A stretch of DNA of 44,037 bases from an uncultured Bacilli bacterium (GCA_944359075.1 CALVSR010000003.1:1-44037), one strand, 5' to 3'; numbered from the stretch's first letter, positions 1,012 to 25,795 are shown. Numbers and translations are program-made. Notes: generated from the sequence alone by a model not told the origin.

Positions 1012-1166
1012 AGTTTTCCGTCACAAAATATACAATATGTTTACTATTATGGCAAATTAACGACAAAAAACGACAATCCAAAGCAAAAATGCCCCAAAAT
1101 CATTTTTATCGAATATTATATATCCAATATGTGATAAATAATCACATATTTTTTTGTAGGAGAAAT

Positions 1167-1922
1167 ATGATGGATCAATTAAAAATGGGGAAAATGATTG
1201 CTGAACTTAGAAAAAAACAAAATCTAACACAAGCACAATTAGGAGAAAAATTAAATGTAACAGATAAAACAATATCTAAATGGGAAAGAGGAAATAGAAC
1301 ACCAGATATTTCGATATTAAATGATTTAAGTAGGATTTTAAAAATTACCACGACTGAATTATTGGATAGTGAACAAATGGAAACACCCGCATTAAAAAGA
1401 TTGTTTCTGGATCATAGCAGTGAAACACAATATTTTAAAGATGTCAGTGAAGCACTATTATTATTTTTAAATAATCATTATGAAAACTGCTATGTTTATT
1501 TTATTCAAAGTCAAGATCATAATTATTATATCAATGGGTTAATTATCCATTCTAATGAAAAAGAGTTTATTAACATTCATTCGATTGAGAAACTTTCAAA
1601 TGATTCTATGAATTTAGAATCTGCATACACTTATGAATATTCCTTAAACATACAAAGTAATAGTATTTATAAACTGGGTAATATCTCGTTATATCAGCAT
1701 CATCATAATAAAGTTGCCATTCCTATCAGTGACATTTTAAGTGAAATTAAAATATACGTAGCAATAGACACAAAAGAAAATTATACTTTAGTAGAAAAAC
1801 CAAATCTTACCATAAAATATATCAATCAAGAATTCCAAGAAAAGGATATACAGATTCCTTTACTTACTCAGGAAATTTTTGCAAACCATAAAGTTACCTA
1901 TAAAGATACAACATATTTTTAG
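1167..1922 (+). CDS. XRE-family HTH transcriptional regulator with C-terminal domain of unknown function
   Basis: IAELRKKQNLTQAQLGEKLNVTDKTISKWERG is a classic XRE HTH. SD AGGAG at 1158-1162 favours ATG 1167/1170 over the ORF-track start at 1089. Confidence 0.85.
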   Translation: MMDQLKMGKMIAELRKKQNLTQAQLGEKLNVTDKTISKWERGNRTPDISILNDLSRILKITTTELLDSEQMETPALKRLFLDHSSETQYFKDVSEALLLFLNNHYENCYVYFIQSQDHNYYINGLIIHSNEKEFINIHSIEKLSNDSMNLESAYTYEYSLNIQSNSIYKLGNISLYQHHHNKVAIPISDILSEIKIYVAIDTKENYTLVEKPNLTIKYINQEFQEKDIQIPLLTQEIFANHKVTYKDTTYF

Positions 1923-2179: not shown

Positions 2180-2827
2180 ATGAATAATTATGATTATATA
2201 ATTAATTCTTTTACAAAAGAAGAAAATGACATTGATTTAGAAGTAGATAATTTAAATGTGGGATGTATCACATCAAAAAATAATAATTTTAATTTAGATA
2301 GTGAAGGAAACTTAACTGTAAAAAGTGTTACAGCACAACAAGGAACATTATCACAGGAAATTATTAGAAATTTAGTTTATCCAGTAGGTTCTATTTATAT
2401 GAATATTAATGCTACCAATCCAGCAACATTATTTGGTGGAACTTGGGAGCAATTACCAGACAGATTTTTATTAGGAGCTGGAAATAGTTATGCAGGAGGA
2501 AGCATTGGAGGAGAGGCAACACATACATTGACGGAAGCAGAAATACCATGGCATTATCATTCATTCAGCGGGACTACAGATGGCAATGGTAATCATTCTC
2601 ATACTGGTAATACATTAGAACTACGTCAAACTAGTTCATATAGCTATAGCAACGATGCTGCAAGGCCAATTACAAGTAGTGCTACTCATTATGGATTACA
2701 AATCACAAATGATGCAGGATGGCATCAACATACATATAGTGGAAATACAGTAGGCGCAGGAGGAAGTCAAGCTCACAATAATATGCCACCATACTTAGCA
2801 GTTTACATTTGGAAACGCACGGCTTAA
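2180..2827 (+). CDS. Phage baseplate/tail-fibre-tip-like protein (T4 gp10/gp12 C-terminal-like)
   Basis: YPVGSIYM...NPATLFGGTWEQL...GGEATHTLT...HxH repeats (HYH, HSH, HQH)...HNNMPPYLAVYIWKRTA are hallmark motifs of phage baseplate/tail-fibre collar and tip proteins. Confidence 0.8.
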   Translation: MNNYDYIINSFTKEENDIDLEVDNLNVGCITSKNNNFNLDSEGNLTVKSVTAQQGTLSQEIIRNLVYPVGSIYMNINATNPATLFGGTWEQLPDRFLLGAGNSYAGGSIGGEATHTLTEAEIPWHYHSFSGTTDGNGNHSHTGNTLELRQTSSYSYSNDAARPITSSATHYGLQITNDAGWHQHTYSGNTVGAGGSQAHNNMPPYLAVYIWKRTA

Positions 2828-8800: not shown

Positions 8801-9149
8801 AAATAAACCAGAAAACAATAATCACAACGTATATGTTCTTAAAGATAAAACTACTGGAAATATAGAGTATGTTGGAAGAACTCAAGATATTGGTAAAACA
8901 ACAATTAGACATCATAATAATCCATTTAGAACTGATTTAAGAATAGACCCAATAGCAATAAACATTTCCAGTGATGAAGCTAGAGGATTGGAACAAATGC
9001 TGATTATAAATTGTAGAACACTTAATAGAAATTCAGACTTTCCAATGAACAATCAAATTAATGGAATCTCACTAAAAAATCCAAAATATGCATTATATTG
9101 GGATGCAGCATTAACTTGGGCTTCAGAAAATGAATTACCATGTAAGTAA
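2865..9149 (+). CDS. WapA-like Rhs/YD-repeat polymorphic toxin with GIY-YIG-like nuclease tip
   Basis: 2094 aa, SD AAGGAG and GTG start. DNRLRE-like domain (DTYI...NRALIKFNL), two CBM-like domains (NYLKNTSFE; NMVENSDFS), ricin-like insert, many YD repeats, and Rhs core (PFRYREYYYD...YYLNSRYYNPEWGRF...NLYAYVNNNP..DLSG). A hydrophobic helix precedes the tip VYVLKD...EYVGRT...R...EARGLEQ...NQIN. Confidence 0.92.
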   Translation: MKEIELIEKRKANEKHFLQEDGTITAKVYSSNIHYLKNGKYEDIDNTLIKKDDCYINKNNDYKVFFKEQGKDSLMRMERENNYLDIKLKQGNATKLKKHQKTSQYVEEVSYHNALNGIDIKYQTLPTKVKETIILNNNQTKTIKFIVDTNLSLELKDNTIIAKDQDENVFTIEKPYMEDSNGVINENISYQITNSDNLYEIELTLDSEWLDSEERLYPVYVDPTISDDKTASGIMDTYIYPNDTNTVRYNQPILKAGVERVNGENVINRALIKFNLPTIGTGSEVINATLTLCGYLMDDMTGTQQFGKTIAIHRVTVPWTEETANWENMNNNYDTRIDAVQFVNRSWLENGQIIPQYSSALYGDVTDLVKHWYKDTPNYGILIKSAKEEYIDDAYPAFYSKNHTIQNANPEPVLSISYRNQSGLESYYDYQSQQLTDGTISVNTYNGNLVGVFNLGKTIGSQLPAILNLIYNTNDVILKNNGFRFSLSQTLKEITIDNTQIYEYIDGDGTVHCFKDQTFRVLKPGVTPPTVEEILDENYNEDDYYETREYCADEDGLLLKLEQVDNKFIIKDKYDNKMTFSKNNTTDELYYLQELEDISNNKIQINYNQSNQLVKVIDSSNHEINIDYNTANVIKVSSPSSETTIGFSNNKINVITTNNGTTSLNYNEKDIISSIIDVNGTKIAYEYYDEIPYRIKKVIQYGLNDTLGQSLIFKYGFNETSITDNKNRTNTILFNSSGNKISSNTMDTEEDINNAYSTYDSIGENNSDRYYEKNKTLYSNCIVKYVKNYLKNTSFEADTNDYNISNIGGVETSYSTDCANSGTRSLKVATTNNYSTVTLASNMNILTGKYYTFSGYFKNEQKGKIIVSYTDKQDGKEYEFVEEFNESSQFERHDITFCINADEPEDVVLYVQLLGPGTCYIDDIQLEDGQVANNYNMVENSDFSEGLSDWSFTPIDSSKTDTYQLFTFNNNKSTALKIDLSNSTKVSKKIPINGIAGDCYDISFWIKNEGIVANNGIIVNCVNISYEPVDENMEQYWVVSNPFVPNKRWQFINYKSIAPYNYKSITISFEHNNEFNQMSITNIYFYKDLDTTYYEYDTYGNLVRTTNIADYNNTFSYDKNNQLISATTPRGKHFKFEYDNTATDRVLNAISSMGISNQVKYDSFGNPILTRISKKANSSPTNLYPVVDSNSTTSSSLTEGTYRIRSKGTEKYFKAEYSSVFLESDSCSNTLWDLEKVGDKFKFIYSVIPTYSLEYLDDILFLSTSNSNNLFILEENKNGSYHIKLATEDKYIKADTSSLAAASLIDDDPTFEFYFEVIGEQFIENSATYSEDGRFVTSVTDSLLNTTSYTTNSTTGLVTSMTNANNQATNYTYNSKNQITSITQGNKTINYTYNTQNLLSKISQGTKEYNFTYDDFLNAKKVMIGDNITLITNEYEENNGNLLKSIYGNNHEISFDYDQFDRVQTIHKMDKDYQYLYDSNGNLAEILTNNIISTFDAPSTELEKWYDSIIKYNYDTIKRIKEYVNDNFKIHYTYDKNDNVTSKQYKLDTTTHNLVNTYDKDDNLTKTVVDNQEVNYQYDELGRLISKNINDNYTTNYDYISLGKRTSTLVNSIQNGNNRYSYQYDKLNNITHLYYNGELQKQYYYDDYNELIKEEDYNTNQKIEYNYDNFGNLLTKTTTDMTTNAIIKTDTYQYSNSNWEDQLTNFNGSSITYDAIGNPLTIGNSIEMTWINGRSLSTYEDTTKNLNISYEYNVDGIRTAKIVNQVETKYYLENSNIIYEQRGNNLIYYLYDLTGLIGLKYNDNTYYYIKNLQGDIIGVLDSNYNQVVSYEYDSWGKVLSIKDNQGNEITDTTNIGIINPFRYREYYYDTETSLYYLNSRYYNPEWGRFLNADGILGANMDILGYNLYAYVNNNPITMSDLSGNFAISASFAIAGIVATAIVAAAAAAVPSIMRAAVQATADIIQQVQIHNAEKSKKNQNKPENNNHNVYVLKDKTTGNIEYVGRTQDIGKTTIRHHNNPFRTDLRIDPIAINISSDEARGLEQMLIINCRTLNRNSDFPMNNQINGISLKNPKYALYWDAALTWASENELPCK
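8128..8531 (+). repeat. Rhs core repeat copy 1 (404 bp, near-identical to 10141-10544)
   Basis: Manual alignment at offset 2013 shows 4 substitutions. Confidence 0.92.
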
Positions 9150-9161
9150 GGAGGAATGAAT

Positions 9162-10037
9162 ATGGGAGCTTGGGGAACAGGCTTATATCAAGATGATGTA
9201 ACATGCGATATTAAAGAAGAATATCTAAATAGACTAAGAATAGGATATACAAATATTGAAGCAACACAAGAAGTAATCGACCATAATATGGATTCTATTG
9301 AAGATGTAGAAGATGGACCACTTTTTTGGTTTGCTTTGGCAGATGTGCAATGGAAATATGGAAGGTTGCTGCCAGAAGTAAAAGAGGAAGCTTTAAAATA
9401 TATTCAAAGTGGCAATGATCTAGAAAGATGGAAAGAAAATAAAAAACAATATGAGAAAAGAAAACAAGTGTTAAAAGAACTTGAAGTAAGGCTTAATTCC
9501 CCTCAGCCACCAGAAAAAAAATTAACAAAGCTTACAATACATAAAGCAACATGGGAAGTTGGTGATGTTTTACTATATCAAATTCATAATGGTGGATTAA
9601 GAAATAATGAAATTGTACGAAACAGTAAGTGGTACAATAAATATGTATTATTACGAGTAGTTGGTATTACTAAGACTAATATTGGCAGTTTGCCTAGAAA
9701 GTATTCCCATGAACAGAATGTAGTAAAAATCTATAATTGGGTTGGTGAATCTGAACCAACTATAGAATTAATAAATAAACTGCAATTTATTATTGGAGAA
9801 AATTTATATAAACGGTTAGAGGAATCTAAATTTACATTAAGTTTTAGTAAAAAAGAACTAAAACAATTAAATTTTAAGACTATTCAAAAAGATCATAATT
9901 ATAAAGAAGTATCGGATCATATTATGAGTATAGTAGGTATACCGTGGGAAAACATTAATACAATTGATCTTGCTTTTATTCAAGCTTTAGATGCCGCAGA
10001 AGAAGAAGGAATTTTAATAGATGAAACTTGTGAGTAA
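9162..10037 (+). CDS. Putative cognate immunity protein (DUF4259-like N-terminus)
   Basis: Directly after the toxin stop with SD AAGGAGG. The MGAWGTGLYQDD N-terminus is typical of DUF4259-like genes found downstream of toxins. Confidence 0.7.
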   Translation: MGAWGTGLYQDDVTCDIKEEYLNRLRIGYTNIEATQEVIDHNMDSIEDVEDGPLFWFALADVQWKYGRLLPEVKEEALKYIQSGNDLERWKENKKQYEKRKQVLKELEVRLNSPQPPEKKLTKLTIHKATWEVGDVLLYQIHNGGLRNNEIVRNSKWYNKYVLLRVVGITKTNIGSLPRKYSHEQNVVKIYNWVGESEPTIELINKLQFIIGENLYKRLEESKFTLSFSKKELKQLNFKTIQKDHNYKEVSDHIMSIVGIPWENINTIDLAFIQALDAAEEEGILIDETCE

Positions 10038-10058
10038 GAGAAATATGAATAGTATGAG

Positions 10059-11194
10059 TTGAATTGGATCAATGGAAGAAGTTTATGTAGCTATAGTGAT
10101 TCTTCTAACGATTTAGATATCATTTATGAGTATGATGAAAATGGTATTAGAACAGCAAAGATAGTAAATCAAGTAGAAACTAAGTATTACCTAGAAAATA
10201 GTAATATTATCTATGAGCAAAGAGAAAACAACTTAATCTATTATCTATATGATTTAACAGGGTTAATAGGATTAAAATACAATGATAATACTTATTATTA
10301 CATTAAGAATCTACAAGGAGATATTATAGGAATACTAGATTCTAATTACAATCAAGTAGTATCTTATGAATACGATAGTTGGGGTAAAGTATTAAGTATT
10401 AAAGATAATCAAGGTAATGAAATTACAGATACAACCAATATCGGTATCATCAATCCATTTAGATATAGAGAATACTATTATGATACAGAAACTAGCTTAT
10501 ATTACTTAAATAGTAGGTACTATAATCCTGAATGGGGTAGATTTATTAATGCAGATAATTATATATCAACTGATACTGGATTACTGGGTTATAATATGTA
10601 TAATTACGCAAATAATAATCCTATAACTTTTGCGGATCCAATGGGTCATGCTGTTTTTATTGGATTATTAGTAGGAATTGTCGCAGCTGGAGCAGCGGGT
10701 ATAGCATATGGCATAAATAATAAGAAACAAAATCAAAAAGCTATCAAAGAAATTAATCAAGTTCAAAAAAAATATCCTAATTCTGTTCCAAATCCGTCTA
10801 AATCAGTTCAATTTCAGGAAACACTAAAAACTAATGCATCTATTGTGAAATCTGAAACTAAAAATATGAATCAGTTCCAAAAATTAGATTACTTTATTAA
10901 TAATGTTAAAACTGGTGGAAAATATGATTTGAAGAATACCGAGGAATGGAAAAACACTGATATATATTATGATGGGTGATTATGGAACCTCAAGATATTG
11001 GAAACTATCACTTTGGTTATATTGGCAGAGCAATGGGTTATGATACTGAATTCTTAACTTCTGGAGCTGGTGCTTATCAATTATATAGTGGAACAGCTAA
11101 AATATCTTGGTGTTTTACAACTAATAATTGTGATGATCCAAGAGATAATTATTATATTAGATTGGGCGCAATTGCATATGATAAAAATAATTAA
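10059..11194 (+). pseudogene. Orphan Rhs core plus C-terminal toxin (Ntox44-like RNase), split by a 1-bp frameshift
   Basis: ORFs 10059-10979 and 10976-11194 join if GATGGGTGATT (~10971-10981) had one more G. Motifs: DPMG cleavage site, TM helix, VKTGGKYDLK...DIGNYHFGYIG...GAG...DDPRD (Ntox44). No SD before 10059. Confidence 0.8.
10141..10544 (+). repeat. Rhs core repeat copy 2
   Basis: Near-identical to 8128-8531. Confidence 0.92.
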
Positions 11195-11233
11195 ATTAGT
11201 TTTGAGTAAAAATTATTTGGACGGTGATTGTAA

Positions 11234-11821
11234 GTGACAAAAAAAATGCTCTTTTTTGGATTATTTCTTTTCACACTATGTTTATTATGTAATTGGTATA
11301 GTGATTTAATTGTCGGATATTTCACGATATTTACTTTACTTTTTATTAAACTTTTTTTACTAATTATATGGATTATATTTCTAGTTAAAATAATTAAAAG
11401 TTTTGATAAAAATAAGAATAAAATTAATATTTTATTTGGAATTTTACTAATAGGTTCTATTTTTTCATTGTTTTTTGACTTTAGATTTATTAAAACTAAA
11501 GTTGAATTTACACTATATAAAAAACAGAGAAATATAATAATAGAAAAAGTTAAGAATAATGAATTTACTTATTATTTTGATAAAAATATAAAATTACCAA
11601 TATATAAATATGTTTCTTCTGATGGTGAGATTTATGTATATAGAAATGATGAAGAACAAATAATTGGCTTTTGGATATTTAGAGGAATTTCAAGTGGGAA
11701 TGTTGAGTTAATCTATTCTTCTGATGGGGAAGATTTAATATACGATATTAAGAATAATTCAGAAATCGTTAAGATTATTGAGTTAGAAGAAAATTGGTAT
11801 TATGTAGAAAGCAACTACTAA
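11234..11821 (+). CDS. Putative membrane immunity protein of the orphan cassette
   Basis: 195 aa with about 3 N-terminal TM helices; lies directly downstream of the orphan toxin tip. Confidence 0.65.
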   Translation: MTKKMLFFGLFLFTLCLLCNWYSDLIVGYFTIFTLLFIKLFLLIIWIIFLVKIIKSFDKNKNKINILFGILLIGSIFSLFFDFRFIKTKVEFTLYKKQRNIIIEKVKNNEFTYYFDKNIKLPIYKYVSSDGEIYVYRNDEEQIIGFWIFRGISSGNVELIYSSDGEDLIYDIKNNSEIVKIIELEENWYYVESNY

Positions 11822-11840
11822 TGAAAAAATAATATAATAT

Positions 11841-12035
11841 TTGGAAGTATGGAATGATAAAAATACAACAAAGGAATTTACCCTTTTCGGTCACAATTTA
11901 ATAAAAGACAATGAAAATTCAAGTTTAGTATCTGGAATTGAATCGTCAAAAAACTCTAAATTCATTGGAATAAGCTTTGAAGGATTTATTGGTTTTGGAG
12001 GAAGAATAAAAATTGGATTTAATATTGGAGGTTAA
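11841..12035 (+). pseudogene. Probable C-terminal remnant of another toxin tip
   Basis: No SD. Gly-rich end (GISFEGFIGFGGRIKIGFN) resembles Rhs C-termini, and its 3' end supplies the SD GGAGG for the next gene. Confidence 0.45.
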
Positions 12036-12043
12036 GATTTATT

Positions 12044-12421
12044 ATGGGTGTAAAAATCAGAAGATTAATAGCAATATATATAGATTGTAATATCATATTT
12101 TGGGTAAGTTATTATTTTTGTGTATTTTGGTCACTATTTAGTAAAAATATTTTCTTTCTTTTTTTCTTTCGTTAGTGGGATTATTAGTATTTATAAATGT
12201 ATTTTTAAGAAAAGATATAATATTTGGTTATGAAAGTATTGGTAAAAAATTAATGCGATTAAAAATTTACGATAAAAATAACGAAAGACTAACAAATAAG
12301 AAACAACTTATTGATCGAACCTTTCATTCCCTTTGGACTTTTCATATATATATTTTTATGATTTTAATAAATAAATAACAAAAGTACTGGAGATAAAAAA
12401 ATTGGTACAACAGTAAAATAA
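12044..12421 (+). pseudogene. RDD-family membrane protein with two frameshifts
   Basis: ATG 12044 gives MGVKIRRLIAIYID, then a shift in the T tract at ~12159-12165. It continues as ...DIIFGYESIGKKLMRLKI..., shifts again in the AAAT repeats at ~12370, and ends NNKSTGDKKIGTTVK*. RR..A..ID, SIGKK and GD...GT.V are RDD motifs. Confidence 0.7.
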
Positions 12422-12500
12422 AATTTATTAATATTAGATATTAAATTAAATATATAAATATAAAAAAATATGAATATGCCTATGTATGGGAGGATTTAAA

Positions 12501-13283
12501 ATGATTATAAATAAAAACATAGAGAATGATGCTTATCTAAAACTAGTTCATTATGCTTTTCAAAAATGTGATAGTATTTTTCTTATAAAAAGAAATGACC
12601 AGCATAAGTCAAGTACAAATAAAATCATGGGAATTATTATGCAAACTAATCAATATACAGAAAATGATATTGTAAATATGTATACAGTAAATTCTAAAAA
12701 GTTTTTAGAGGAGATGGTTGGTCAGTTTATAGATAATGATACTATTTTTGAAGAAGATGAATGGAAAGAGAACTTGGTAAAATTAGGAGCAGATAGTAAA
12801 CAAATTGAAAAGTGTAAAATCGATAATAGCTTTCATATGATAGAGGATAGCATTATGCAATTTGTATACGAGCACCTAACTTACTCATGGATTAGTAAAC
12901 ATCGAAATAGTATTATTTCTGAAAAAAATAGATATTTACCATTAAAGTATATATCTAATAAAGCTATGTATGATGAGCAGTTTCTTTATACCACTACATA
13001 TTATATTAGATTAACTAATGAAATAAAAGCAGAACTAATTAATAAAAATTCGATTTATGATTGGTGTTTTCCAATGGCTCTTGAAGATTTATGTTTTTTT
13101 AAAGACGGTTATTGTTGGTTATATTCTGTCGCACATGAAGAAATTTTAGATATTTATTGTGAAAATGAAGAAGAATATAATTACTTGAAATCAATCGGAG
13201 TCGAATTTGTAGAAGATCATTTTATACCTATTTCAGAGAAAGAGAAGGAAGCTTTATACAATAAAAACTTTAATAATAATTAA
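12501..13283 (+). CDS. Putative immunity protein, paralog A (EDLCFFKDGYCWLYSVAHE family)
   Basis: SD GGAGG then ATG 12501; the N-terminus aligns with the 16328 and 17296 paralogs; located in the toxin array. Confidence 0.7.
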   Translation: MIINKNIENDAYLKLVHYAFQKCDSIFLIKRNDQHKSSTNKIMGIIMQTNQYTENDIVNMYTVNSKKFLEEMVGQFIDNDTIFEEDEWKENLVKLGADSKQIEKCKIDNSFHMIEDSIMQFVYEHLTYSWISKHRNSIISEKNRYLPLKYISNKAMYDEQFLYTTTYYIRLTNEIKAELINKNSIYDWCFPMALEDLCFFKDGYCWLYSVAHEEILDIYCENEEEYNYLKSIGVEFVEDHFIPISEKEKEALYNKNFNNN

Positions 13284-13474
13284 TCGTACATTTATTATGA
13301 ATACAATGTAGATAGTATTAGAATAGCAAAGATAGTAAATGGATTAAAAACCAAGTATTACCTAGAAAATAGTAATATTATCTTTGAGCAAAGAGGAAAC
13401 AACTTAATCTATTATCTATATGATTTAACAGGATTAATAGGATTAAAATACAACGATGATACTTATTATCACAT
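13083..13474 (+). repeat. ~390-bp direct repeat, left copy (3' end of immunity gene plus Rhs core fragment)
   Basis: Matches 16880-17271 (offset 3797) with the first ~215 bp identical; 13295-13474 also matches Rhs 8111-8290. Confidence 0.9.
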
Positions 13475-13536
13475 AGAATTTATTAAACTATTTTACTAGT
13501 TATGATTGAATACACTAATTATAAAAAGGTGAAAAA

Positions 13537-13992
13537 ATAATAGGCGTTAGATTCAAAATAGAAAATGAATATGATAATATTTTTTATAAAATATTTAAAA
13601 ACATAGATTTTCATGAATACGATTGAAACATTGTTGAGGATGAGATTTATTCTCAGACAGGAAAAAATTATTTTGACAAAGCTCATTATTTAAATGATGA
13701 GTTTCAGAAGTTAATAGAATATGGAATATATTACCCAGTGTTTGCTAATATACAAATGTATAGAAAACAAGATGAAGTAGAAGATATTGAAACTTATTCA
13801 GATTTTATTAATAGTAAATGTCAGCTTGTCTTATTTATTACAGATAATGAATTTGTTGATATTTATTCTAAGAATGAAAATTGGTTAAATACTATTTACC
13901 AAAATGCTATAGATAATAACTTTGAAAACCTTCAATATATTGAAAATAATAATTCTTATATACATCATAGATTTTCTGCATACTCAGACTAA
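13537..13992 (+). pseudogene. DUF2691-like putative immunity protein with nonsense codon and lost start
   Basis: In frame upstream of ORF 13738: IGVRFKIENEY...FHEYD*(TGA 13624)NIVEDE...YYPVFANIQMY...IETYSDFINSKCQLVLFITD. SD AAGGTGA is followed by ATA rather than ATG. Confidence 0.65.
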
Positions 13993-14065
13993 GTAAAATT
14001 GATATCAATAAATTATGACATAGATCATTTAGGTGGGCAAAATATATTTTAATTAAATTAATAAT

Positions 14066-14100
14066 AAAAGGCTCTATCTATATATAGGATTGAGTCTTTT
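14066..14100 (+). terminator. Putative terminator upstream of the holin
   Basis: AAAAGGCTC...GAGTCTTTT hairpin. Confidence 0.45.
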
Positions 14101-14126
14101 GCCTATTAGTGAAAGGAGAAATGAAC

Positions 14127-14486
14127 ATGGAAGAGTTTATAGAACATATTATGGCAATGAATGAGCCAAAATTATTATTTATATTATGTGGAATATTTAT
14201 ATTTACAGATGTTCTAACAGGATATTTAAAGGCATTTAAAACAAAAAAAATTAATTCATCTATTAGTAGAGATGGTTATTTAAAGAAAGTATCTTGGCTA
14301 ATAGCATTAATTTTTGGATTTGTAATTGATTATTTAGTAGGTACACAATTATTTTTAATTGGAACAGCAGTAGTATGTGTGATAACAGAGGGAATATCCG
14401 TTTATGAAAATCTTGGCGAATTAGGAGTTAGCTTACCATTTACAAAGTACTTTGAAAAAGTAAAAGATAATAGTGAGATTATATAG
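14127..14486 (+). CDS. Phage holin family 4 (TcdE/Cp-1-type) holin
   Basis: DVLTG..KA....INSSISRDG..KK and EGISVYENLG.LG motifs, 3 TM helices; SD AAGGAG 8 nt before ATG 14127. Confidence 0.88.
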   Translation: MEEFIEHIMAMNEPKLLFILCGIFIFTDVLTGYLKAFKTKKINSSISRDGYLKKVSWLIALIFGFVIDYLVGTQLFLIGTAVVCVITEGISVYENLGELGVSLPFTKYFEKVKDNSEII

Positions 14487-14501
14487 AAGGGAATATAGAG
14501 T

Positions 14502-15374
14502 GTGAATTATTTTACATTTGGGATGAAAGTGTTAAGAGTAACGCAAAACTATAATGGATCTACTTCGCATAAAGCACACTGGTATCACTCTACTAACTAT
14601 GCAGATTATCCAATTGACTGTGCTGGAAAAGATGGTGACAAAGATATTTACTATGCACCAGTAGATATGAAAGTAACGGCTGTAAAAGGAATAGGTAATG
14701 CTACTACTAATACTATTTGGTTAGTAGCATGTGAAAAATGTATGACCCCAAGCGGAGAAATATTACCTTTTATTATGCTAACTCATTTTAATGATAATGA
14801 TCCCTATGTATCTAATTTGAAAGTAGGTTCTATTGTGAAACAGGGACAACCTATTTGTGAAGAAGGAACAGATGGTGCTACTGCGAATCATTTACACATC
14901 GTAGTAGGAAATGCAGATAGAGGTTGTGGAAATGGTTTCATTCAAAACTCTAATGGTAAGTGGGTTAGTAATGGTTACTGTATGAAACCAGAAGAAATTA
15001 TGTATATAGATAAAGACTTCACAAATGTACTTGATACCAATGGTATTATTTTTAAAGATAAGCCCAAAGAAGAACCAAAAGAAAGTTTTTTTGGATCAAA
15101 AGGGTACTTTTGTTTAGGAAATTATCATGAAAATATTGGAAAAATTTGCGATTTCTTTGCTGAATATTTTTATGGATACTTTTATAAAGGAGAAAATGCT
15201 AAAGCAAAGGCTCATCAAGTCTTAGACGGAAATTATTTTGGACCTTATTTAAAAAAATGGACAATAGAGTTTCAAAAACGTGCTAAAGATGAAGGAAAAT
15301 ACAATGATGAAATAGATGGATGCATTGGCCCTAAAACCCTAACTGCCTTAAAATATTATGGATTTCAAGAATAG
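14502..15374 (+). CDS. Endolysin-like peptidoglycan hydrolase: M23-type peptidase plus C-terminal PG-binding domain
   Basis: H...PID..G.DG, YAP, KVG..VKQGQ.I..EG.DG...NHLH (M23 Zn motif); C-terminal DG.YFGP......EFQK...DGCIGPKT (PG_binding_1-like); no signal peptide. Confidence 0.85.
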   Translation: MNYFTFGMKVLRVTQNYNGSTSHKAHWYHSTNYADYPIDCAGKDGDKDIYYAPVDMKVTAVKGIGNATTNTIWLVACEKCMTPSGEILPFIMLTHFNDNDPYVSNLKVGSIVKQGQPICEEGTDGATANHLHIVVGNADRGCGNGFIQNSNGKWVSNGYCMKPEEIMYIDKDFTNVLDTNGIIFKDKPKEEPKESFFGSKGYFCLGNYHENIGKICDFFAEYFYGYFYKGENAKAKAHQVLDGNYFGPYLKKWTIEFQKRAKDEGKYNDEIDGCIGPKTLTALKYYGFQE

Positions 15375-15384
15375 TAAGATAATA

Positions 15385-15416
15385 AAGAGGAAATTTCAAT
15401 ATAAATTCCTCTTTTA
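15385..15416 (+). terminator. Rho-independent terminator after the endolysin
   Basis: AAAGAGGAA...TTCCTCTTTT hairpin. Confidence 0.6.
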
Positions 15417-15436
15417 TAATGTTAATATATATTTTA

Positions 15437-15809
15437 AGTAAAAAATATTAATGATAATAAACTATAATACAATTAAGATATTTCTGGTAATTTATTAACA
15501 AAAACTACCACAGATATGACAACCAATGTTATAATAAAGACAGATACTTATCAGTATTCTAATAGTAATTATGAAGACCAACTAACAAACTTTAATGAAA
15601 GTAGTATTACCTATGACAGCATCGGAAACCCATTAACAATTGGAAATAGTATCGAAATAGCCTGAATCAATGGTAGAAGCTTAAGTATCTATGAAGATGC
15701 TACCAAGAATTTAAATAATCATAGGAATACTAGATTCTAGTTACAATCAAGTAATATCTTATGAATACGATAGCTGGAGCCAAGTATTAAGTATTAAAGA
15801 TAATCAAGG
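15437..15809 (+). pseudogene. Internally deleted, degenerate Rhs fragment
   Basis: 15485-~15717 matches 7874-~8106; 15721-15809 matches 8313-8401; 15437-15484 loosely matches ~7620-7667; TGG>TGA at 15663. Confidence 0.85.
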
Positions 15810-15818
15810 AGGTTTATT

Positions 15819-16223
15819 ATGTATAGTATTGATGATATTATGGATATGCTTGATTGGAATAGGAGCATAGAAGATCAAGAAAAAGGTATAGAATTAGCAA
15901 GATCTATTAAAAGTATTAATGTTTTTATACAACCACTTGATCCAAACCACAATAAAAATGTATGGGAAAATTGTGCAAAGATTTTATTTGAGAGAAGTGA
16001 TGAAGAATTAAAACCATATTTAATTTCATTGTTTGAGTGGTTACAAGATTTAACTTGTCCTGGCGCTATGATTATTTTTGATAGATTAAAAAGTTATAAA
16101 GATAAGACAAATTTCGATTTTTCTTATAAAGTATGCTTAAGTGAAGCAAAAAAGTTAGGCGATGAGGCATGGAAAGATAATATAATCGAACTTGGCAAAT
16201 CTATAAATAAGGAGATATCGTAG
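15819..16223 (+). CDS. DUF5071-like putative immunity protein
   Basis: WENCAKIL...LKPYL..LFEWLQDL..PGA motif; SD AAGGAGG. Confidence 0.7.
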   Translation: MYSIDDIMDMLDWNRSIEDQEKGIELARSIKSINVFIQPLDPNHNKNVWENCAKILFERSDEELKPYLISLFEWLQDLTCPGAMIIFDRLKSYKDKTNFDFSYKVCLSEAKKLGDEAWKDNIIELGKSINKEIS

Positions 16224-16309
16224 GAATATTAGATTCTAGTTACAATCCACATTATCACCCAGGGAAAAGACCTAATCATTCACATATTTGGTTTTTTCCA
16301 TCCCCATAA
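16209..16309 (+). pseudogene. Rhs core fragment fused in frame to the last 20 codons of a deleted toxin tip
   Basis: 16209-16247 matches 8302-8340; the frame reads GDIVGILDSSYN-PHYHPGKRPNHSHIWFFPSP*. Confidence 0.6.
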
Positions 16310-16327
16310 GGAAAGGAAGATTAGAAA

Positions 16328-17080
16328 ATGGTTATAGATAAAAATATAGAGAAAGATACATATTGGAAATTAGTCGATTATGCTTTTCAAAAGTGTGATA
16401 CTATTTCTCTTACTAAGCAAAATGATCAACATGAATCAGAACATAAAAAAATTATGGATATTATTATGTCAATGAATAGTTATTCAGCAACCGATATTTT
16501 AAATAATTATTCTGAAAAATTTCTAGAAGATATGGTTCTTCAATTTAAAGATAATGATATTATTTTTGATGAGGAAAATTGGAAAAAGTATGTTAAAAGC
16601 TTGGGAATGAGTGATGAAAGTATTGAAGAATTAAAAAAAAGTAATAGATATCATACGATAACTGGAAGTATTATGAGGTTTGTTTATAAAAAACTTACAG
16701 AATCATGGATCAATAGAAATAGAAATAGTATTATTACAGTCACTAATCATTATATAACTGAATTATCTGGCAAAAAATTTTTATATAATCATATATATTA
16801 CATAAAAATGACAAAGGAAATACAGGAAGAAATGCTAAAAAAGCAATCATTATTTGATTGGATTTTTCCTACATCACTAGAAGATTTATGTTTTTTTAAA
16901 GACGGTTATTGTTGGTTATATTCTGTCGCACATGAAGAAATTTTAGATATTTATTGTGAAAATGAAGAAGAATATAATTACTTGAAATCAATCGGAGTCG
17001 AATTTGTAGAAGATCATTTTATACCTATTTCAGAGAAAGAGAAGGAAGCTTTATACAATAAAAACTTTAATAATAATTAA
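16328..17080 (+). CDS. Putative immunity protein, paralog B
   Basis: Homologous throughout to 12501-13283, with the C-terminal ~67 aa identical. Confidence 0.72.
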   Translation: MVIDKNIEKDTYWKLVDYAFQKCDTISLTKQNDQHESEHKKIMDIIMSMNSYSATDILNNYSEKFLEDMVLQFKDNDIIFDEENWKKYVKSLGMSDESIEELKKSNRYHTITGSIMRFVYKKLTESWINRNRNSIITVTNHYITELSGKKFLYNHIYYIKMTKEIQEEMLKKQSLFDWIFPTSLEDLCFFKDGYCWLYSVAHEEILDIYCENEEEYNYLKSIGVEFVEDHFIPISEKEKEALYNKNFNNN

Positions 17081-17296
17081 TCGTACATTTATTATTAATA
17101 CAATGTAGATGGTATTAGAATAGCAAAGATAGTAAATCAAGTAGAAACTAAGTATTACCTAGAAAATAGTAATATTATCTATGAGCAAAGAGGAAACGAC
17201 TTAATCTATTATCTATATGATTTAACAGGATTAATAGGGTTAAAATACAATGATAATACTTATTATTACATTAAGAATCTACAAGGAGATATTATA
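16880..17296 (+). repeat. ~390-bp direct repeat, right copy, extended by Rhs core fragment
   Basis: 16880-17271 matches 13083-13474; 17092-17296 matches Rhs 8111-8315. Confidence 0.9.
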
Positions 17297-17862
17297 TGTT
17301 AATTAAAGGAAAAATAGAAAATGAAAAATATGAAAGACTAATAAAATATGCTTTTCAAAAATCTGATGCAATTATGTTTGTCTTTAGAAAAGATGGCTTT
17401 AGTAATCAGCAAATTTTGAAATTAGAGAAAACATCTAATGACTTAAAAACAAAATTTAAAGATTATATTTTAAAAATTAGAAATGGTTCTTATTGGGTAT
17501 TTACAAAAGTTGGATATTCACAATTAGGTATTTCTAGTTCTGAATTTAAAGATCCATCTAATTTTGATAAATTATTTGAAGTGTTATTTTATAAAACTAC
17601 TAAAGAATTAGAAGAATATGTACTATCAAATTCTAATTTATATTCATGGCTTAATCCAGACTATCCTGAAGATATATCATTTTTTAAAAACGGCTATTGT
17701 TGGCTATATTCTGTAGCGCATGAAGAAATGTGTGACATATATTGTGAAAATGAGGAAGAATACAACTATTTAAAATCTATAGGAATTGAGTTTATGGATG
17801 ATAAGTTTATAGAAATTTTAAATAATGAATTATATTTTGAAAATTATGATAATATACTATAG
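17296..17862 (+). CDS. Putative immunity protein, paralog C
   Basis: YAFQKSD and EDISFFKNGYCWLYSVAHEE..DIYCENEEEYNYLKSIG motifs are shared with paralogs A and B. Confidence 0.72.
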   Translation: MLIKGKIENEKYERLIKYAFQKSDAIMFVFRKDGFSNQQILKLEKTSNDLKTKFKDYILKIRNGSYWVFTKVGYSQLGISSSEFKDPSNFDKLFEVLFYKTTKELEEYVLSNSNLYSWLNPDYPEDISFFKNGYCWLYSVAHEEMCDIYCENEEEYNYLKSIGIEFMDDKFIEILNNELYFENYDNIL

Positions 17863-17920
17863 ACCGATTATAGAATTAATAATCCTATTACAGTAAATTA
17901 CATTATTTTGCTAAAAAATA

Positions 17921-17950
17921 AAAATCCACTAGCTAAACTAGTGGGTTCTT
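17921..17950. terminator. Bidirectional terminator marking the end of the island
   Basis: CCACTAG-ctaaa-CTAGTGG hairpin between convergent genes. Confidence 0.55.
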
Positions 17951-17968
17951 ATTTATGAATACATACCA

Positions 17969-18061
17969 TTAAATAAACCAAACCATAATACCTGCTATAA
18001 AAGAACCAAGCATGATTAAAGTTAAAAATATAGCCATTCCTTTTAACATTTTTTTATTCAT
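17969..18061 (-). CDS. 30-aa single-TM small protein (Prli42/DUF4044-like)
   Basis: MNKKMLKGMAIFLTLIMLGSFIAGIMVWFI*, SD GAGGTG; absent from the ORF track. Confidence 0.65.
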   Translation of the reverse strand: MNKKMLKGMAIFLTLIMLGSFIAGIMVWFI

Positions 18062-18159
18062 GATAACACCTCATTAACATTATAATAAAAAACAATAAAA
18101 AAGTAAAATATTTAAACATATTTTATCAAAAACTTAATATGATTTATTAGGTGAACAAA

Positions 18160-18777
18160 ATGAATAAAATAATAGTCAAAGCAAAGAAAAGCATTACGAA
18201 TCAAAAAAAGAAATATCTATTTTTAACTACCATTATTTCGATTGGAATCCTAAGTGGTATTCTATTTATCTTTTTTATCTCTAAGGAGGACAAGTCATTA
18301 GTAAAAACAGAATTAACTACTTTTTTTACTTATATTCAAACCAATGATATTCATTATCTAACAGCATTTACGAATAGTCTATTTTCTAATCTTACTTACT
18401 TAGTAATAATCTGGATATTAGGTATTTCGATTGCTGGAATTCCTATTATTATTTTTCTATTATTTTTTAAAGGATTTATTTTTGGATTTAGTTTTTCAGC
18501 AGTAATTGCAAATTATGGAGTAAAAGGAATTTTATTATCTATGGCTTATCAATTACCACATGCCTTGTTCTTATTGATTATTTTTTTATTAATTGGTTTT
18601 TATGCCATCAATTTTTCTATTCGTTTATTTAGAAACTTATTTTTAAAAGAACAAATCAATCTAGGACCTTATTTTAAAAGATATAATCAAATAGCTATTA
18701 TTAGCATTATAGGTATTTTGATTTGTTCCTTATTAGAAACCTTTTTATCACCGGTTTTCATGAACTTTTTCTTGTAA
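18160..18777 (+). CDS. spoIIM: Stage II sporulation protein M family membrane protein
   Basis: IWILGISIAGIPII..LLFFKGFIFGFS, LPH and LET..SP motifs; about 5 TM helices. Confidence 0.8.
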   Translation: MNKIIVKAKKSITNQKKKYLFLTTIISIGILSGILFIFFISKEDKSLVKTELTTFFTYIQTNDIHYLTAFTNSLFSNLTYLVIIWILGISIAGIPIIIFLLFFKGFIFGFSFSAVIANYGVKGILLSMAYQLPHALFLLIIFLLIGFYAINFSIRLFRNLFLKEQINLGPYFKRYNQIAIISIIGILICSLLETFLSPVFMNFFL

Positions 18778-18800
18778 AGAAATATAGAAAAAAGTATAAT
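18772..18800 (+). promoter_or_regulatory. SigA promoter of mnmA
   Basis: TTGTAA-N17-TATAAT. Confidence 0.6.
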
Positions 18801-18821
18801 ATGATATAGCAGGTGAAGTTT

Positions 18822-19928
18822 ATGAAAAGAGTAGTAATTGGAATGAGTGGAGGAGTGGATAGTAGCGTCAGTGCTATTTTATTAAAGCAACAAGGATATG
18901 AAGTAGTCGGTTTATTTATGAGAAATTGGGATACTTCTGTAAATGGTGATATTTTAGGAAATCCGAATTTGGATCATAATATTTGTCCTCAAGAGCAGGA
19001 TTACAATGATGCTTTAGCTGTATGTAATAAGATTGGTATTCCTCTACATAGAGTTGATTTTGTGAAAGAATATTGGGATAATGTATTTGAATATTTTTTA
19101 AGTGAATTAAAAGAAGGTAGAACACCAAATCCAGATGTTATGTGCAATAAATATATTAAATTCGATTATTTTATTAGAGAAGCTCAAAAATTAGGAGCAG
19201 ATTATATTGCTACAGGTCATTATGCAAGAATTCAAGATGGACAATTATTAAGAGCGATAGATTCTAATAAAGACCAAACTTATTTTTTATCACAGCTATC
19301 TAAAAAGCAGTTAGAAAATGTTTTATTTCCAATCGGAGATTTAGAAAAGAAAGAAGTAAGAAAAATAGCTGAAGAATATGATTTAGTTACTGCTTCTAAA
19401 AAAGACTCTACAGGAATTTGTTTTATTGGGGAAAGAAACTTTAAAAATTTCTTAAAAAATTACTTACCCAATCAACCTGGAAAAGTTATTAATATTGAAA
19501 CCAATGAAGTGGTTGGAGAGCATATTGGACTAATGTATTATACGATAGGGCAGAGAAGGGGACTAGATATAGGAGGAACCGATAGTAGAATGTTTGTAGT
19601 TGGAAAAAACTTAGAAAAAAACATTCTATACATCGCTTTAGGAGAAGATAATGAGTATCTATACTCTGATAGTTGTATAATCGATACCATAAATTTTAAT
19701 ACTTCAGAACGTCCAACGCAATGTAGCGCTAAATTTAGATATCGTGCTCCTGATTATCCAGTAACTCTAGAGTATATAAATGATCATCAGATTTTAGTAA
19801 AGTATGATCGAATAAAAGCGGTTACCCCCGGACAAGCTTGCGTATTTTATGATGGAGAAAAATGTCTCGGTGGAGGAATTATCAAAACAGTATGTAAAAA
19901 CAATGAAAAACTTTGGTATATATTGTAA
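18822..19928 (+). CDS. mnmA: tRNA-specific 2-thiouridylase MnmA
   Basis: SGGVDS, TPNPDVMCN, ATGHYA, KDSTGICFIG and TPGQ motifs. Confidence 0.97.
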   Translation: MKRVVIGMSGGVDSSVSAILLKQQGYEVVGLFMRNWDTSVNGDILGNPNLDHNICPQEQDYNDALAVCNKIGIPLHRVDFVKEYWDNVFEYFLSELKEGRTPNPDVMCNKYIKFDYFIREAQKLGADYIATGHYARIQDGQLLRAIDSNKDQTYFLSQLSKKQLENVLFPIGDLEKKEVRKIAEEYDLVTASKKDSTGICFIGERNFKNFLKNYLPNQPGKVINIETNEVVGEHIGLMYYTIGQRRGLDIGGTDSRMFVVGKNLEKNILYIALGEDNEYLYSDSCIIDTINFNTSERPTQCSAKFRYRAPDYPVTLEYINDHQILVKYDRIKAVTPGQACVFYDGEKCLGGGIIKTVCKNNEKLWYIL

Positions 19929-19997
19929 AATAAATGTCAACTTTACTACTTGTATTTTTAAGTGAATGTGATAGAATGATATTAGGAGGTCATAGAT

Positions 19998-20768
19998 ATG
20001 CAGGATCTAAAAAAATTATTTTCAGAGCTTGGAATCTCAAAAGTTAGATTAGCTAAATATCTAGGAGTTTCTAGACAAATGCTTTATAACTATTTAGCTG
20101 AAGAAAAATTAGAAAATTGGCCAAAAGAAAAGGTAATGAAGATTCTATGTTTGCTAGGAATCAAAGATGTAAAAGATCTAGATAACATTAAAATAGATGG
20201 AGAATACATTATTCAAGTGGAGAACCGCTTGAATGATGGCGTAAAAGAAGATAACGGTAATTTTTATGGAACTGTGGAATTAAAAGGATTAAACAAAAAA
20301 GAACAAGAACTGTTATCGGATATTTTCCAATTATTAAAAGATAAAATGATTGAAGACAAAACAAAAGACGCTTATTATAGTTGCCGCTACTTATATTATT
20401 TTCTACAATCGATGGGTACTACAAAAGAATTGAAATATATCTTAGCTTATATTGCGAAGTCTATGGGATTTATCGATCATACGGAATATGCATTTAATGA
20501 GGAAAAGCAATTTATATTTGAAAGTATTATGTTTTCTGCTATGACATTATATAATAATGGAGGAGCTTCTAGAAGTAAAATAGCTGAAACGCATAAGCGA
20601 TTTGTACAAAAAATAGAACATGAAAAAGAAGAGGTTCTTAGTAGAACGCAAGAGTTAAATACAGCAAAAGTACAAGCCTTAAAAGAACTTGGTTATACCG
20701 AGATTAATAATGAAAATGCCAAAGAAATATTAGATAAAATAGCTGAAATTCAATCTAGAAAAGTATAG
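19998..20768 (+). CDS. N-terminal HTH domain protein of unknown function
   Basis: ISKVRLAKYLGVSRQMLYNY HTH; SD AGGAGG; TTGTAT...TGaTAGAAT promoter upstream. Confidence 0.7.
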   Translation: MQDLKKLFSELGISKVRLAKYLGVSRQMLYNYLAEEKLENWPKEKVMKILCLLGIKDVKDLDNIKIDGEYIIQVENRLNDGVKEDNGNFYGTVELKGLNKKEQELLSDIFQLLKDKMIEDKTKDAYYSCRYLYYFLQSMGTTKELKYILAYIAKSMGFIDHTEYAFNEEKQFIFESIMFSAMTLYNNGGASRSKIAETHKRFVQKIEHEKEEVLSRTQELNTAKVQALKELGYTEINNENAKEILDKIAEIQSRKV

Positions 20769-20798
20769 CAACTACCCCTAATGATGATACTTGAATCA

Positions 20799-20837
20799 TA
20801 AAACCCCAATTGAGTTCCATACTCAATCGGGGTTTTA
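20799..20837. terminator. Bidirectional terminator
   Basis: AAAACCCCAATTGAGT...ACTCAATCGGGGTTTT between convergent genes. Confidence 0.75.
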
Positions 20838-20841
20838 CTAT

Positions 20842-21723
20842 TTAACTGTCACTTTTTATCTTTCGATAGGCTTTTCCTTTTTCTAATTCTATATTATAAT
20901 GATCACACAACTCACTAATAGTTACAAATTTATATTCTTCCGTCAATTCTGGTAATATTTCATTTAACACTTCTATATCTACCTCATGAACAGCACTAGT
21001 ATCATGCATTAATATAATACATCCAGGTTCAATATAGTCCAGTATTTCTTGTTTGATTTGTTCTTTATCTTTGGTTTTCCAATCCTCTGTATCTATATTC
21101 CATAAAATAAAAGGATATTCGATATTCTCTTTTAGAGTATCATTCAAGCTACCATAAGGTGGTCTTACTAGACAAGAGGATTCTATTCCTAATGACGCAA
21201 TATAATCCATCGTATTAGTGATTTCTTGATTGACTTGATCTATACTTAATTTTGTAAAAGAAGTATGAGTATCTCCATGAATAGCTATTTCATGTCCAGA
21301 ATCAGAAATAGTAGTAAGTGCATCAGGATAATTTTCAGAATTACAACCCAAAACAAAGAAAGTGGATTTAACACCGTAAGAGTCAAGCACCTCGACTAAT
21401 TCTTCCGTATATTTGCTAGGACCATCATCAAAAGTAAGTGCTACTAGTCCTCTGTTGTCTTCTTCTACTGGTTCTTCGGTTGCTATAGAAGGTAGAGTGG
21501 GTGAGGGTAACACTTCCGTACTTTCATGAGTAGTTATAGTACTACTTTCGCTAGAAATCACTGGTGAAGAATTAGTATTCATCTCATTTTTTGTCTCTTG
21601 TTCTATTTTAATATCAAAATGTTTAGTTTCATCTGTCTTTTTTTCAAAACTACATCCAACTGAAGTACTAGATACTATTAATATAGTACCAATTCTCAAA
21701 ACTAAGTTCTTTATTTTTAGCAT
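20842..21723 (-). CDS. Polysaccharide deacetylase (NodB/CE4), probable lipoprotein
   Basis: ALTFDDGP, HEIAIHGDTH, RPPYG, DTEDWK and ILMHD motifs; lipobox-like SVGC. Confidence 0.92.
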   Translation of the reverse strand: MLKIKNLVLRIGTILIVSSTSVGCSFEKKTDETKHFDIKIEQETKNEMNTNSSPVISSESSTITTHESTEVLPSPTLPSIATEEPVEEDNRGLVALTFDDGPSKYTEELVEVLDSYGVKSTFFVLGCNSENYPDALTTISDSGHEIAIHGDTHTSFTKLSIDQVNQEITNTMDYIASLGIESSCLVRPPYGSLNDTLKENIEYPFILWNIDTEDWKTKDKEQIKQEILDYIEPGCIILMHDTSAVHEVDIEVLNEILPELTEEYKFVTISELCDHYNIELEKGKAYRKIKSDS

Positions 21724-21904
21724 GATAGACCTCTTTCTTTATAATTTGTAATTATACAATACATCATATTAAAAATTTATGCAATATCTAATAACAGCTA
21801 TCTTTTAATTAGTAGTGTTATGACTGCTATAAACATCATAAATAAACGATTTAATGGTTATCATAATAAATTAATCAAAAAAGACCAAACTAGTCTTAAA
21901 ATGA

Positions 21905-25693: not shown

Positions 25694-25795
25694 AATATCA
25701 CCATCTATTATATTGTACCATGTATTAACCTCTAAAACCAGTTTCATTGCTATTTTAAATTACATGTAGTAGAATAGAGCTAGGTGATAAACAGT

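Follow-up and report, generated by a model that had tools for sequence, protein, structure and literature searches.

How a toxin locus comes to be trailed by immunity genes that have no working toxin beside them is the question raised by a 44,037-nucleotide stretch of DNA from an uncultured Bacilli bacterium (GCA_944359075.1, CALVSR010000003.1:1-44037). In this stretch, referred to throughout as the window, an rhs gene of full length and its cognate immunity gene are followed by a row of immunity-like genes, remnants of toxins and fragments of the rhs core (Table 1). An initial annotation of positions 11821-17862, made from the sequence alone, had proposed that former C-terminal toxin (CT)-immunity cassettes were compacted here into a poly-immunity array, the core fragments remaining as homology handles through which cassettes could be shuffled without a dedicated integrase. 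The analysis described here indicates that positions 9156-17862 are very probably the tail end of a polymorphic-toxin island of the Rhs type, in a gut bacterium of Bacilli type whose genome is small and low in GC, and that the array was born of successive displacement of toxin-tip and immunity modules followed by erosion, with recombination still continuing in the absence of a recombinase of its own; this high confidence attaches to the explanation as a whole.

The window is the whole of contig C3 in a genome of 1.34 Mb in 90 contigs, estimated to be 92% complete. For comparison, 25 relative loci (L-numbers) carrying homologues of the EDLCFF family of immunity-like genes were fetched, the records of related loci being assigned to uncultured Bacilli, Bacillales, Tenericutes or Erysipelotrichaceae. 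Genomes are designated by G-numbers and metagenome runs by X-numbers.

Toxin Remnants and Core Fragments in the Array

The gene that opens the series is a full-length rhs in which YD repeats and an Rhs-associated core precede a variable C-terminal tip (RHS_repeat, E 7e-21; YD_repeat_2x; TIGR03696 at residues 1832-1923), and the modules downstream of it begin with a 3′ fragment of this same core. Self-BLAST of the window DNA recovered five core copies with 88-97% identity to the main rhs gene, and the three Rhs-core pieces reported in the initial annotation are real. Fragment B, in which 203 bp are missing from the interior (main 8107-8309) and a TGG codon at 15663 has become an in-frame TGA, abuts the ribosome-binding site of the DUF5071 gene, and fragment C joins the ATG of EDL3 directly; in both cases the core bases CAAGGAG stand at ribosome-binding-site distance from the start codon. 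A further short core piece overlaps the final codons of DUF5071 and is fused in frame to a toxin tail.

Remnants of toxins themselves were expected at three places, and two of these could be upheld. Stub 1, ending in GGRIKIGFNIGG, comprises the last 64 or so codons of a glycine-rich Rhs toxin tip and aligned by BLASTP at 44% identity (E 6e-12) with residues 550-603 of a 606-residue segment at the C-terminal end of a full-length Rhs frame of G085 (L027). Homologues of this stub are found directly before RDD genes in L015 and L018. When the L018 homologue was used as query against 401 genomes of the order, five genomes were matched; in G085, G326 and G304 the match fell towards the end of an open frame some 2000 residues long, the frames of G085 and G326 being full-length Rhs proteins. 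The copy in G326 is followed by an RDD-like membrane gene. The match in G304 (E 5e-4) was set aside as weak and lying within a different repeat protein. Pfam recognized no named toxin domain in the parent of stub 1.

Stub 2, PHYHPGKRPNHSHIWFFPSP, is likewise a toxin tail. Homologues of the EDLCFF genes sit behind Rhs tips ending in VMCDN..SA..VA...YYxHYHP....HxHIWFY, and a toxin-domain profile of 93 positions was built from 14 such tips and run on the 25 loci and the window. Its invariant residues are C11, A14, C44, Y74, H76, H78, H87, I88 and W89. All 21 matches lay directly upstream of an EDLCFF gene, with a gap of at most 265 nucleotides and, in 20 of 21 cases, of no more than 60. Fifteen were complete, two broken and four, those of L009, L013, L019 and the window (E 5e-7), reduced to the tail. 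The four tail-only stubs differ in toxin subtype and in upstream partner, and so represent independent events. Both invariant cysteines are gone from the window stub, which therefore cannot be active. Longer remnants are known as well, a full domain without the core being present in L006 and L003. Remnants of such graded length indicate a continuum of deletion end points that is limited by the immunity gene and calls for no special mechanism.

The third proposed stub (IKYINIKKYEYAYVWEDLK, 12445-12501) was rejected as a toxin tail: it gave no match to the toxin profile and falls within a 79-nucleotide AT-rich spacer that extends from the true stop codon of the RDD gene to EDL1, whose ATG is preceded by a GGGAGG ribosome-binding site.

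Immunity Genes and Their Toxin Partners in Relatives

All six immunity-like genes of four families that had been described downstream of the first orphan module are present, but two of them, RDD and DUF2691, are dead. The intact genes are EDL1, DUF5071, EDL2 and EDL3, to which imm2 of the Ntox44 module is to be added. RDD scored 20.6 bits against a Pfam cut-off of 24.1, its intact homologues reaching 25.7 and 26.2 bits; if the second of its two frameshifts is followed, the frame ends in NNKSTGDKKIGTTVK at 12419-12421, as homologues do. The three EDLCFF paralogues had no Pfam match, and the family is a rare one, with 22 proteins at E ≤ 0.001 among 5.8 billion. An assignment of EDLCFF to DUF2716 (Atlas lead, score 0.91) was rejected, none of 24 family members matching that model in Pfam at E ≤ 1.

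The relatives reveal what once stood in front of these genes. Among 42 EDLCFF copies in the 25 loci, 20 have toxin-domain sequence upstream, 15 of these a complete toxin; the remaining 22 have none, two of them being cut by a contig end. None of the three copies in the window has a complete toxin before it. Behind an orphan Rhs tip in L015 stands a DUF2691 gene, and an intact DUF2691 gene stands behind the main Rhs tip of G409, while a DUF5071 homologue follows an orphan tip in L013 and an RDD gene an Rhs tip in L028. All four families thus stand directly behind intact Rhs toxin tips in relatives, and the toxin-immunity pairings recur in other genomes. With two stubs that are toxin tails and gene families that are found behind toxins elsewhere, an origin of the cassettes from toxin-immunity modules is well supported, although the "library" that the initial annotation saw in them is partly dead.

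In the first module behind the main gene, the core piece is joined by an Ntox44 toxin that is split by a frameshift; the homologue in L010 stays in one frame. The immunity gene of the main toxin, imm1, had no Pfam match. A strongly hydrophobic alanine/glycine-rich helix was observed after the Rhs core at about 8660-8760 in the main tip, at about 10660-10730 in the first orphan module and in the tips of relatives, and may be a membrane-entry segment.

The toxin domain from which stub 2 derives is about 90 residues long (PCT...MCD...YxHYHP...HIWF), is found in full in L002, L004, L015 and other loci, and has no Pfam model. Against 1.84 billion representatives of 50%-identity clusters, the profile matched 270 proteins at E ≤ 0.001, of which 50 reached E ≤ 1e-10; among the best 150 of the 270, which range from 42 to 2414 residues, the match nearly always ends at the C-terminus. 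RHS_repeat was detected in 14 of 23 distant holders of the domain, and Pfam found no named toxin domain either in the toxin tips or in these 23 proteins. A confident structure model of the domain (pLDDT, the predicted local distance difference test score, 88.8) had no Foldseek match in the PDB at E ≤ 0.001, and resemblance to extradiol dioxygenase/glyoxalase-like modules (best VIA Z 4.3) is too weak for the fold to be named. EDL2 was also modelled with confidence (pLDDT 92.0), with no Foldseek match and a best VIA Z of 5.4; it has no hydrophobic segment, which suggests that the toxin probably acts in the cytoplasm. A literature search found nothing on DUF2691 or DUF5071 as immunity proteins, nor on the EDLCFF family. 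The Rhs toxin domain, as yet without a model, and its putative cognate immunity family therewith offer handles for experiment.

Two observations on the records of this family may be added. In L001, from a mouse-gut metagenome-assembled genome, the frameshifted tail of a toxin continues in frame into the EDLCFF gene (9425-10741, also protein P0008), and gene callers therefore give a 436-residue fusion of core, toxin and immunity protein. Contigs titled uncultured Muribaculaceae (L005, L016) hold EDLCFF and also DUF2691 genes typical of Bacilli loci, which suggests mis-binning or transfer.

Strain Differences and Recombination Within the Core

A comparison is provided by G409, the genome of a near-identical strain in the same genus, which is 97.5% identical to the window over positions 1-8611. 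Identity stops exactly at the end of the core, at 8611, beyond which G409 has an unrelated toxin tip, an intact DUF2691 gene and a core piece. Window positions 13295-15377 are then shared at 97.9%, the same dead DUF2691 gene included, and are followed in G409 by a 35-nucleotide hairpin and then by the right flank (96.3% identical from 17946 on). Nothing in G409 corresponds to window segments 8612-13294 and 15378-17945. In core fragment A, 78 of the first 94 nucleotides are identical between the two strains and 94 of the last 94, so that a crossover is placed inside the core fragment, near 13388; the genes beyond it are 99.4% (DUF2691), 99.7% (holin) and 98.1% (lysin) identical.

Exchange within the array is indicated by its own repeats. 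The 5′ parts of two units, EDL1 with fragment A and EDL2 with fragment C, show 45-80% similarity, but the likeness rises to 98-100% across 13080-13290, a stretch that spans the 3′ ends of the two genes and the first bases of the core fragment that follows. This stretch is a recent conversion tract between paralogous units.

Other arrangements were encountered in metagenomes. In an X7 contig, 15374 is linked to 17949 by the very 40 nucleotides found there in G409. In X6, one contig has the order EDL3, 144 nucleotides, imm2, 1004 nucleotides, holin, and another joins core position ~8397 to 16245, which could be either another deletion junction or a fuller toxin. Close strains differ in cassette content, with a breakpoint in shared core homology, G409 carrying a different set and X6 and X7 further arrangements. 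The cassettes of the window are also met with in contigs of other studies, at 90-99% identity.

Origin of the Array and Competing Explanations

Direct observation covers the homologies, the toxin-immunity pairs of relatives, the lesions, the differences between strains and the one crossover in a core piece, and the displacement-and-erosion process that would join them is a known one and not new. Modules of toxin tip and immunity gene would enter by recombination in the conserved 3′ core of rhs, each incoming module shifting older ones downstream. The orphan toxins, untranslated and unneeded, would then be frameshifted, truncated or deleted, and those immunity genes that still guard against toxin-bearing neighbours would remain open. 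Deletions would stop where the immunity gene is unharmed, so that the final toxin codons or a piece of core would often stay behind. Repeated core pieces and paralogous immunity genes would go on recombining within the array and between strains, reshuffling the cassettes. The order of these events is a reconstruction, in which the intact immunity genes are presumed to be expressed and protective and the toxins to be antibacterial.

Several findings weigh against this account in its simplest form. The crossover in fragment A and the divergence of G409 at the core end bear out the proposal that core pieces serve as homology handles, but the right-hand junction of 15378-17945 has no core homology, and such handles therefore do not explain all events. 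The junction between the lysin gene and fragment B is bridged only by a contig of X1, possibly the source sample. Because one of the RDD frameshifts, that near 12170, lies within a T-rich run where contigs break, it may have arisen in assembly. With two of six immunity genes dead and no orphan toxin intact, part of the array is plain decay; it is a partly decaying scar and no tidy "library".

Carried further, this last point leads to the alternative that the whole array is debris, its orphan immunity genes neither expressed nor selected. We consider this unlikely. It would accommodate the broken RDD and DUF2691 genes, the frameshifted orphan Ntox44 toxin, the hairpin (15383-15413) that stands directly after the lysin gene and ahead of the last three cassettes, and the lack of enrichment in promoter-like sites (71 observed against 77 expected). 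It is difficult to reconcile, however, with four open reading frames of 134-260 codons that stay open in DNA of 23-30% GC while neighbouring pieces have TGG>TGA stops, each with a ribosome-binding site at the right spacing, with the preservation of the invariant EDLCFF residues in all three copies of the window, or with the recurrence of the cassettes in other studies.

Less probable still is a standby arsenal of orphan modules, kept in reserve to arm the main rhs gene with a new toxin by recombination, as in evolved Salmonella (Koskiniemi et al., 2014). The core pieces, at 88-97% identity to the main gene, would permit this and the main tip does differ between the window and G409, yet the first orphan toxin is frameshifted, two are tail stubs and the others are gone; in the absence of an intact orphan toxin, recombination could shift immunity genes and not arm a toxin.

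An assembly chimera, in which the repeated core would have made the assembler join non-adjacent cassettes, has to be entertained for a contig of a metagenome-assembled genome with five core copies, the more so as X1 contigs break at low-complexity spots. We nevertheless regard it as highly improbable. The independent genome G409 has 13295-15377 together with both outer flanks, and contigs of X5, from another study, bridge EDL1 and fragment A (13118-13387), fragment B and DUF5071 (15756-16014), DUF5071, stub and EDL2 (16094-16881), and fragment C, EDL3 and flank (17267-17978), while X7 bridges EDL2 and fragment C (16494-17120). Most internal junctions are therefore spanned, and a chimera is disfavoured.

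Just as hard to credit is a site-specific cassette system, integron-like or resembling a recombinase-associated immunity island, with an unrecognised recombinase: a modular array of short cassettes would suit it, but the junctions fall at varied points of core and toxin with no repeated attachment site, the sole tyrosine recombinase is a XerD-like gene 7 kb away, and among the scanned island open reading frames (17 + 8 proteins, Pfam) there is no integrase or other recombinase, in keeping with the initial annotation. The XerD-like gene (24767-25747, minus strand) is next to a phosphopentomutase-like gene and looks like a housekeeping gene unlinked to the array.

Relation to Known Orphan-Module and Displaced-Immunity Systems

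Displacement and erosion, as proposed for this array, have well-described counterparts, and the comparisons below draw on the available parts of the cited papers. In Enterobacteria, orphan rhs-CT/rhsI and cdiA-CT/cdiI modules are located downstream of the full-length genes (Poole et al., 2011, PMC3150448; Koskiniemi et al., 2014, PMC3967940). There, as in the window, modules that open with a 3′ piece of the core come after a full-length rhs and the immunity gene cognate to it, core homology permits recombination, and the tip varies by strain while the core is conserved. Unlike the enterobacterial modules as described in those parts, the orphan toxins of the window are all inactivated or deleted and mostly immunity genes are left; the host is a monoderm, small-genome member of the Bacilli, no type VI secretion system (T6SS) is involved, and a holin-endolysin pair lies in the island.

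Arrays of orphan immunity genes have also been attributed to sequential effector displacement in the T6SS clusters of Vibrio cholerae, with homologous recombination and homology-facilitated illegitimate recombination as the proposed routes and without need of an integrase (Kirchberger et al., 2017, PMC5361080). The likeness lies in the displacement or loss of old effectors and the retention of immunity genes within the 3′ region. As far as the available text goes, the window differs in that delivery would be by an Rhs cage and not as T6SS cargo, that the conserved Rhs core supplies the repeated homology, and that the remnants comprise both core pieces and toxin tails. Further literature of this kind includes Hagan (2023) and a 2026 preprint on Stenotrophomonas.

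Among Firmicutes, strings of type VII secretion system (T7SS) immunity genes have been reported (Garrett et al., 2022, PMC9484751), as have orphan lrhI copies of the T7SSb-linked Rhs toxin LrhA in Listeria (Bowran et al., 2023, PMC10327511). These share with the window a Gram-positive host, orphan immunity genes and recombining tandem paralogues, as in the EDL1/EDL2 tract. Unlike LrhA as described in the parts seen, the rhs gene of the window is not beside essC, T7SSb genes being on another contig, and its N-terminus is a DNRLRE domain and not of LXG or DUF6531 type.

The array is accordingly of the classical orphan-module or displaced-immunity type, partly decayed, in a new lineage; a literature search returned no description of such systems in this uncultured, small-genome gut Bacilli lineage. 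It offers a clear example of an interbacterial toxin locus in the course of becoming an immunity gene array, with independent deletions that spared the toxin tail and a crossover caught within a core fragment.

A Holin-Endolysin Pair Within the Array

A holin gene and an endolysin gene inside the array were overlooked in the initial annotation. Of the 16 genomes with a close homologue of the holin, 11 have it less than about 8 kb from an Rhs core (6 of 7 in the genus, 5 of 9 further genomes of the family), and among 29 kin genomes of the genus it occurs in 8 of 12 with an Rhs core and in 0 of 17 without. A peptidoglycan hydrolase followed the holin in all five loci inspected (L001, L003, L012, L018, L020); its type varies between NlpC/P60 plus CW_7 and M23 with or without PG_binding_1, as typed by Pfam in L003, L012 and L018 and, for the M23-like gene of L020 and the M23-like fragment of L001, by eye. 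In relatives the pair is usually at the distal end of the array, and in G210 the order is HTH (helix-turn-helix), HTH, holin, lysin, Gp10_C, Rhs.

The first 70 residues of the main Rhs protein contain no hydrophobic segment (maximum Kyte-Doolittle mean over 19 residues, -0.24), and the lysin has neither a signal peptide nor an N-terminal hydrophobic segment. Holin- and endolysin-dependent toxin release is known from type 10 secretion of Yersinia Tc toxins (PMC10847048) and from TcdE of Clostridioides difficile (PMC12150058). In the available parts of those reports, as here, a very large toxin, apparently without a signal peptide, is accompanied by a holin of phage origin and by a peptidoglycan hydrolase; Tc toxins also have an Rhs-type cage. 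The comparison concerns the holin-lysin pair only. The window holin belongs to Pfam Phage_holin_4_1. TcdE is a member of this family. Unlike those systems, the pair in the window would serve a monoderm and would have as its cargo a polymorphic, probably antibacterial Rhs toxin that comes with immunity genes.

The linkage to a holin-endolysin pair constitutes the most novel lead, towards lysis-type release of a Gram-positive Rhs toxin, and its recurrence could explain how an apparently signal-less Rhs protein of 2094 residues leaves a Gram-positive cell. Contig C16 of the same genome carries a T7SSb locus (about 9900-22000) with EssC (998 bits, above cut-off) and three WXG100-like genes. T7SSb is a rival export route for Rhs, so that release by way of the lysis genes counts as a lead here, not as a result. 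Tentatively, and with clearly less than even confidence in the combined claim, the island may be read as a self-contained phage-derived weapon of monoderm gut Bacilli, in which a repressor-like regulator and a tail-fibre-like partner accompany a signal-less Rhs cage toxin whose own holin and endolysin would release it by controlled lysis or holin-dependent export; the array would then be a record of circulating toxins, and the stub-2 toxin with EDLCFF a new family pair. If true, this would add a third route to the two, Sec and T7SSb, by which Rhs toxins of Gram-positive bacteria are exported.

Genomic Setting

The island begins with a regulator gene that is kept beside the holin or Rhs in G210, G409 and G418, and of the 12 full-length Rhs genes examined in relatives, 10 have a Gp10_C homologue upstream; the Gp10_C protein may be a targeting or assembly partner of Rhs. 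GC content is 23-33% across the island region, and window DNA is present in chicken-gut metagenomes. A complete prophage carrying the holin and lysin was considered and rejected, because housekeeping-like genes flank the island on both sides: open reading frames upstream of it in G409 resemble MutS, NusB and exonuclease VII on a by-eye reading, and spoIIM and mnmA lie downstream.

Table 1. Features of the Rhs island and its immunity gene array, in window coordinates
Feature	Position	Strand	Remarks and support
HTH (Cro/C1-type) regulator, island head	1089..1922	+	Pfam HTH_3, E 2e-15; PHROG repressor families
Phage tail-fibre/baseplate-like protein (Gp10_C domain), directly upstream of rhs	2180..2827	+	Pfam Gp10_C, E 2e-21; PHROG tail protein, E 1.5e-28
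Main rhs, 2094 residues	2865..9149	+	DNRLRE domain, YD repeats, Rhs-associated core (residues 1832-1923), variable tip from ~8612
imm1, cognate immunity gene of main toxin	9156..10037	+	Homologues follow homologous tip in L024, L019, L047
Orphan module 1, core piece and Ntox44 toxin	10048..11194	+	Core = main 8034-8614, 90.5%; frameshift 10976-10979
imm2, membrane immunity gene of Ntox44 module, intact	11234..11821	+	Hydropathy; adjacency
Stub 1, toxin tail	11841..12035	+	
RDD-family membrane immunity gene, pseudogene	12044..12421	+	Two frameshifts, near 12170 and 12376
EDL1, EDLCFF family, 260 residues, intact	12501..13283	+	No toxin remnant upstream
Core fragment A	13295..13482	+	Main 8111-8300, 90.5%, E 2e-69
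DUF2691 immunity pseudogene	13537..13992	+	Pfam E 8e-20; ATA for ATG at 13537-13539; TGG>TGA at 13624-13626
Holin (Phage_holin_4_1)	14109..14486	+	Pfam E 1e-19; PHROG holin
Endolysin, M23-like N-terminal and peptidoglycan-binding-like C-terminal parts	14502..15374	+	PHROG endolysin, E 4e-11; weak M23 match
Core fragment B	15459..15809	+	15459-15717 = main 7848-8106, 88.8%, E 8e-93; 15718-15809 = main 8310-8401, 91.3%
DUF5071 immunity gene, 134 residues, intact	15819..16223	+	Pfam E 1e-7; toxin wholly deleted
Core piece of ~39 nucleotides in in-frame fusion to stub 2	16209..16309	+	Core part 16209-16247 (main ~8302-8340)
Stub 2, toxin tail	16247..16309	+	Profile match 16235-16300, positions 70-91 of 93, E 5e-7
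EDL2, EDLCFF family, 250 residues, intact	16328..17080	+	
Core fragment C	17092..17296	+	Main 8111-8315, 97.1%, E 6e-95
EDL3, short-form EDLCFF, 188 residues, intact	17296..17862	+	Toxin wholly deleted
Bidirectional terminator-like hairpin, island right edge	17923..17947	both	Before spoIIM and mnmA

An alternative genetic code as the source of the in-frame TGA codons was rejected, TGA terminating 81 of 670 long open reading frames; when only TAA and TAG were taken as stops, 463 of 698 long frames were free of TGA. The genome uses the standard code. Far from the island, a 70-nucleotide direct repeat of 85.7% identity is located at 40788-40857 and 43627-43696.

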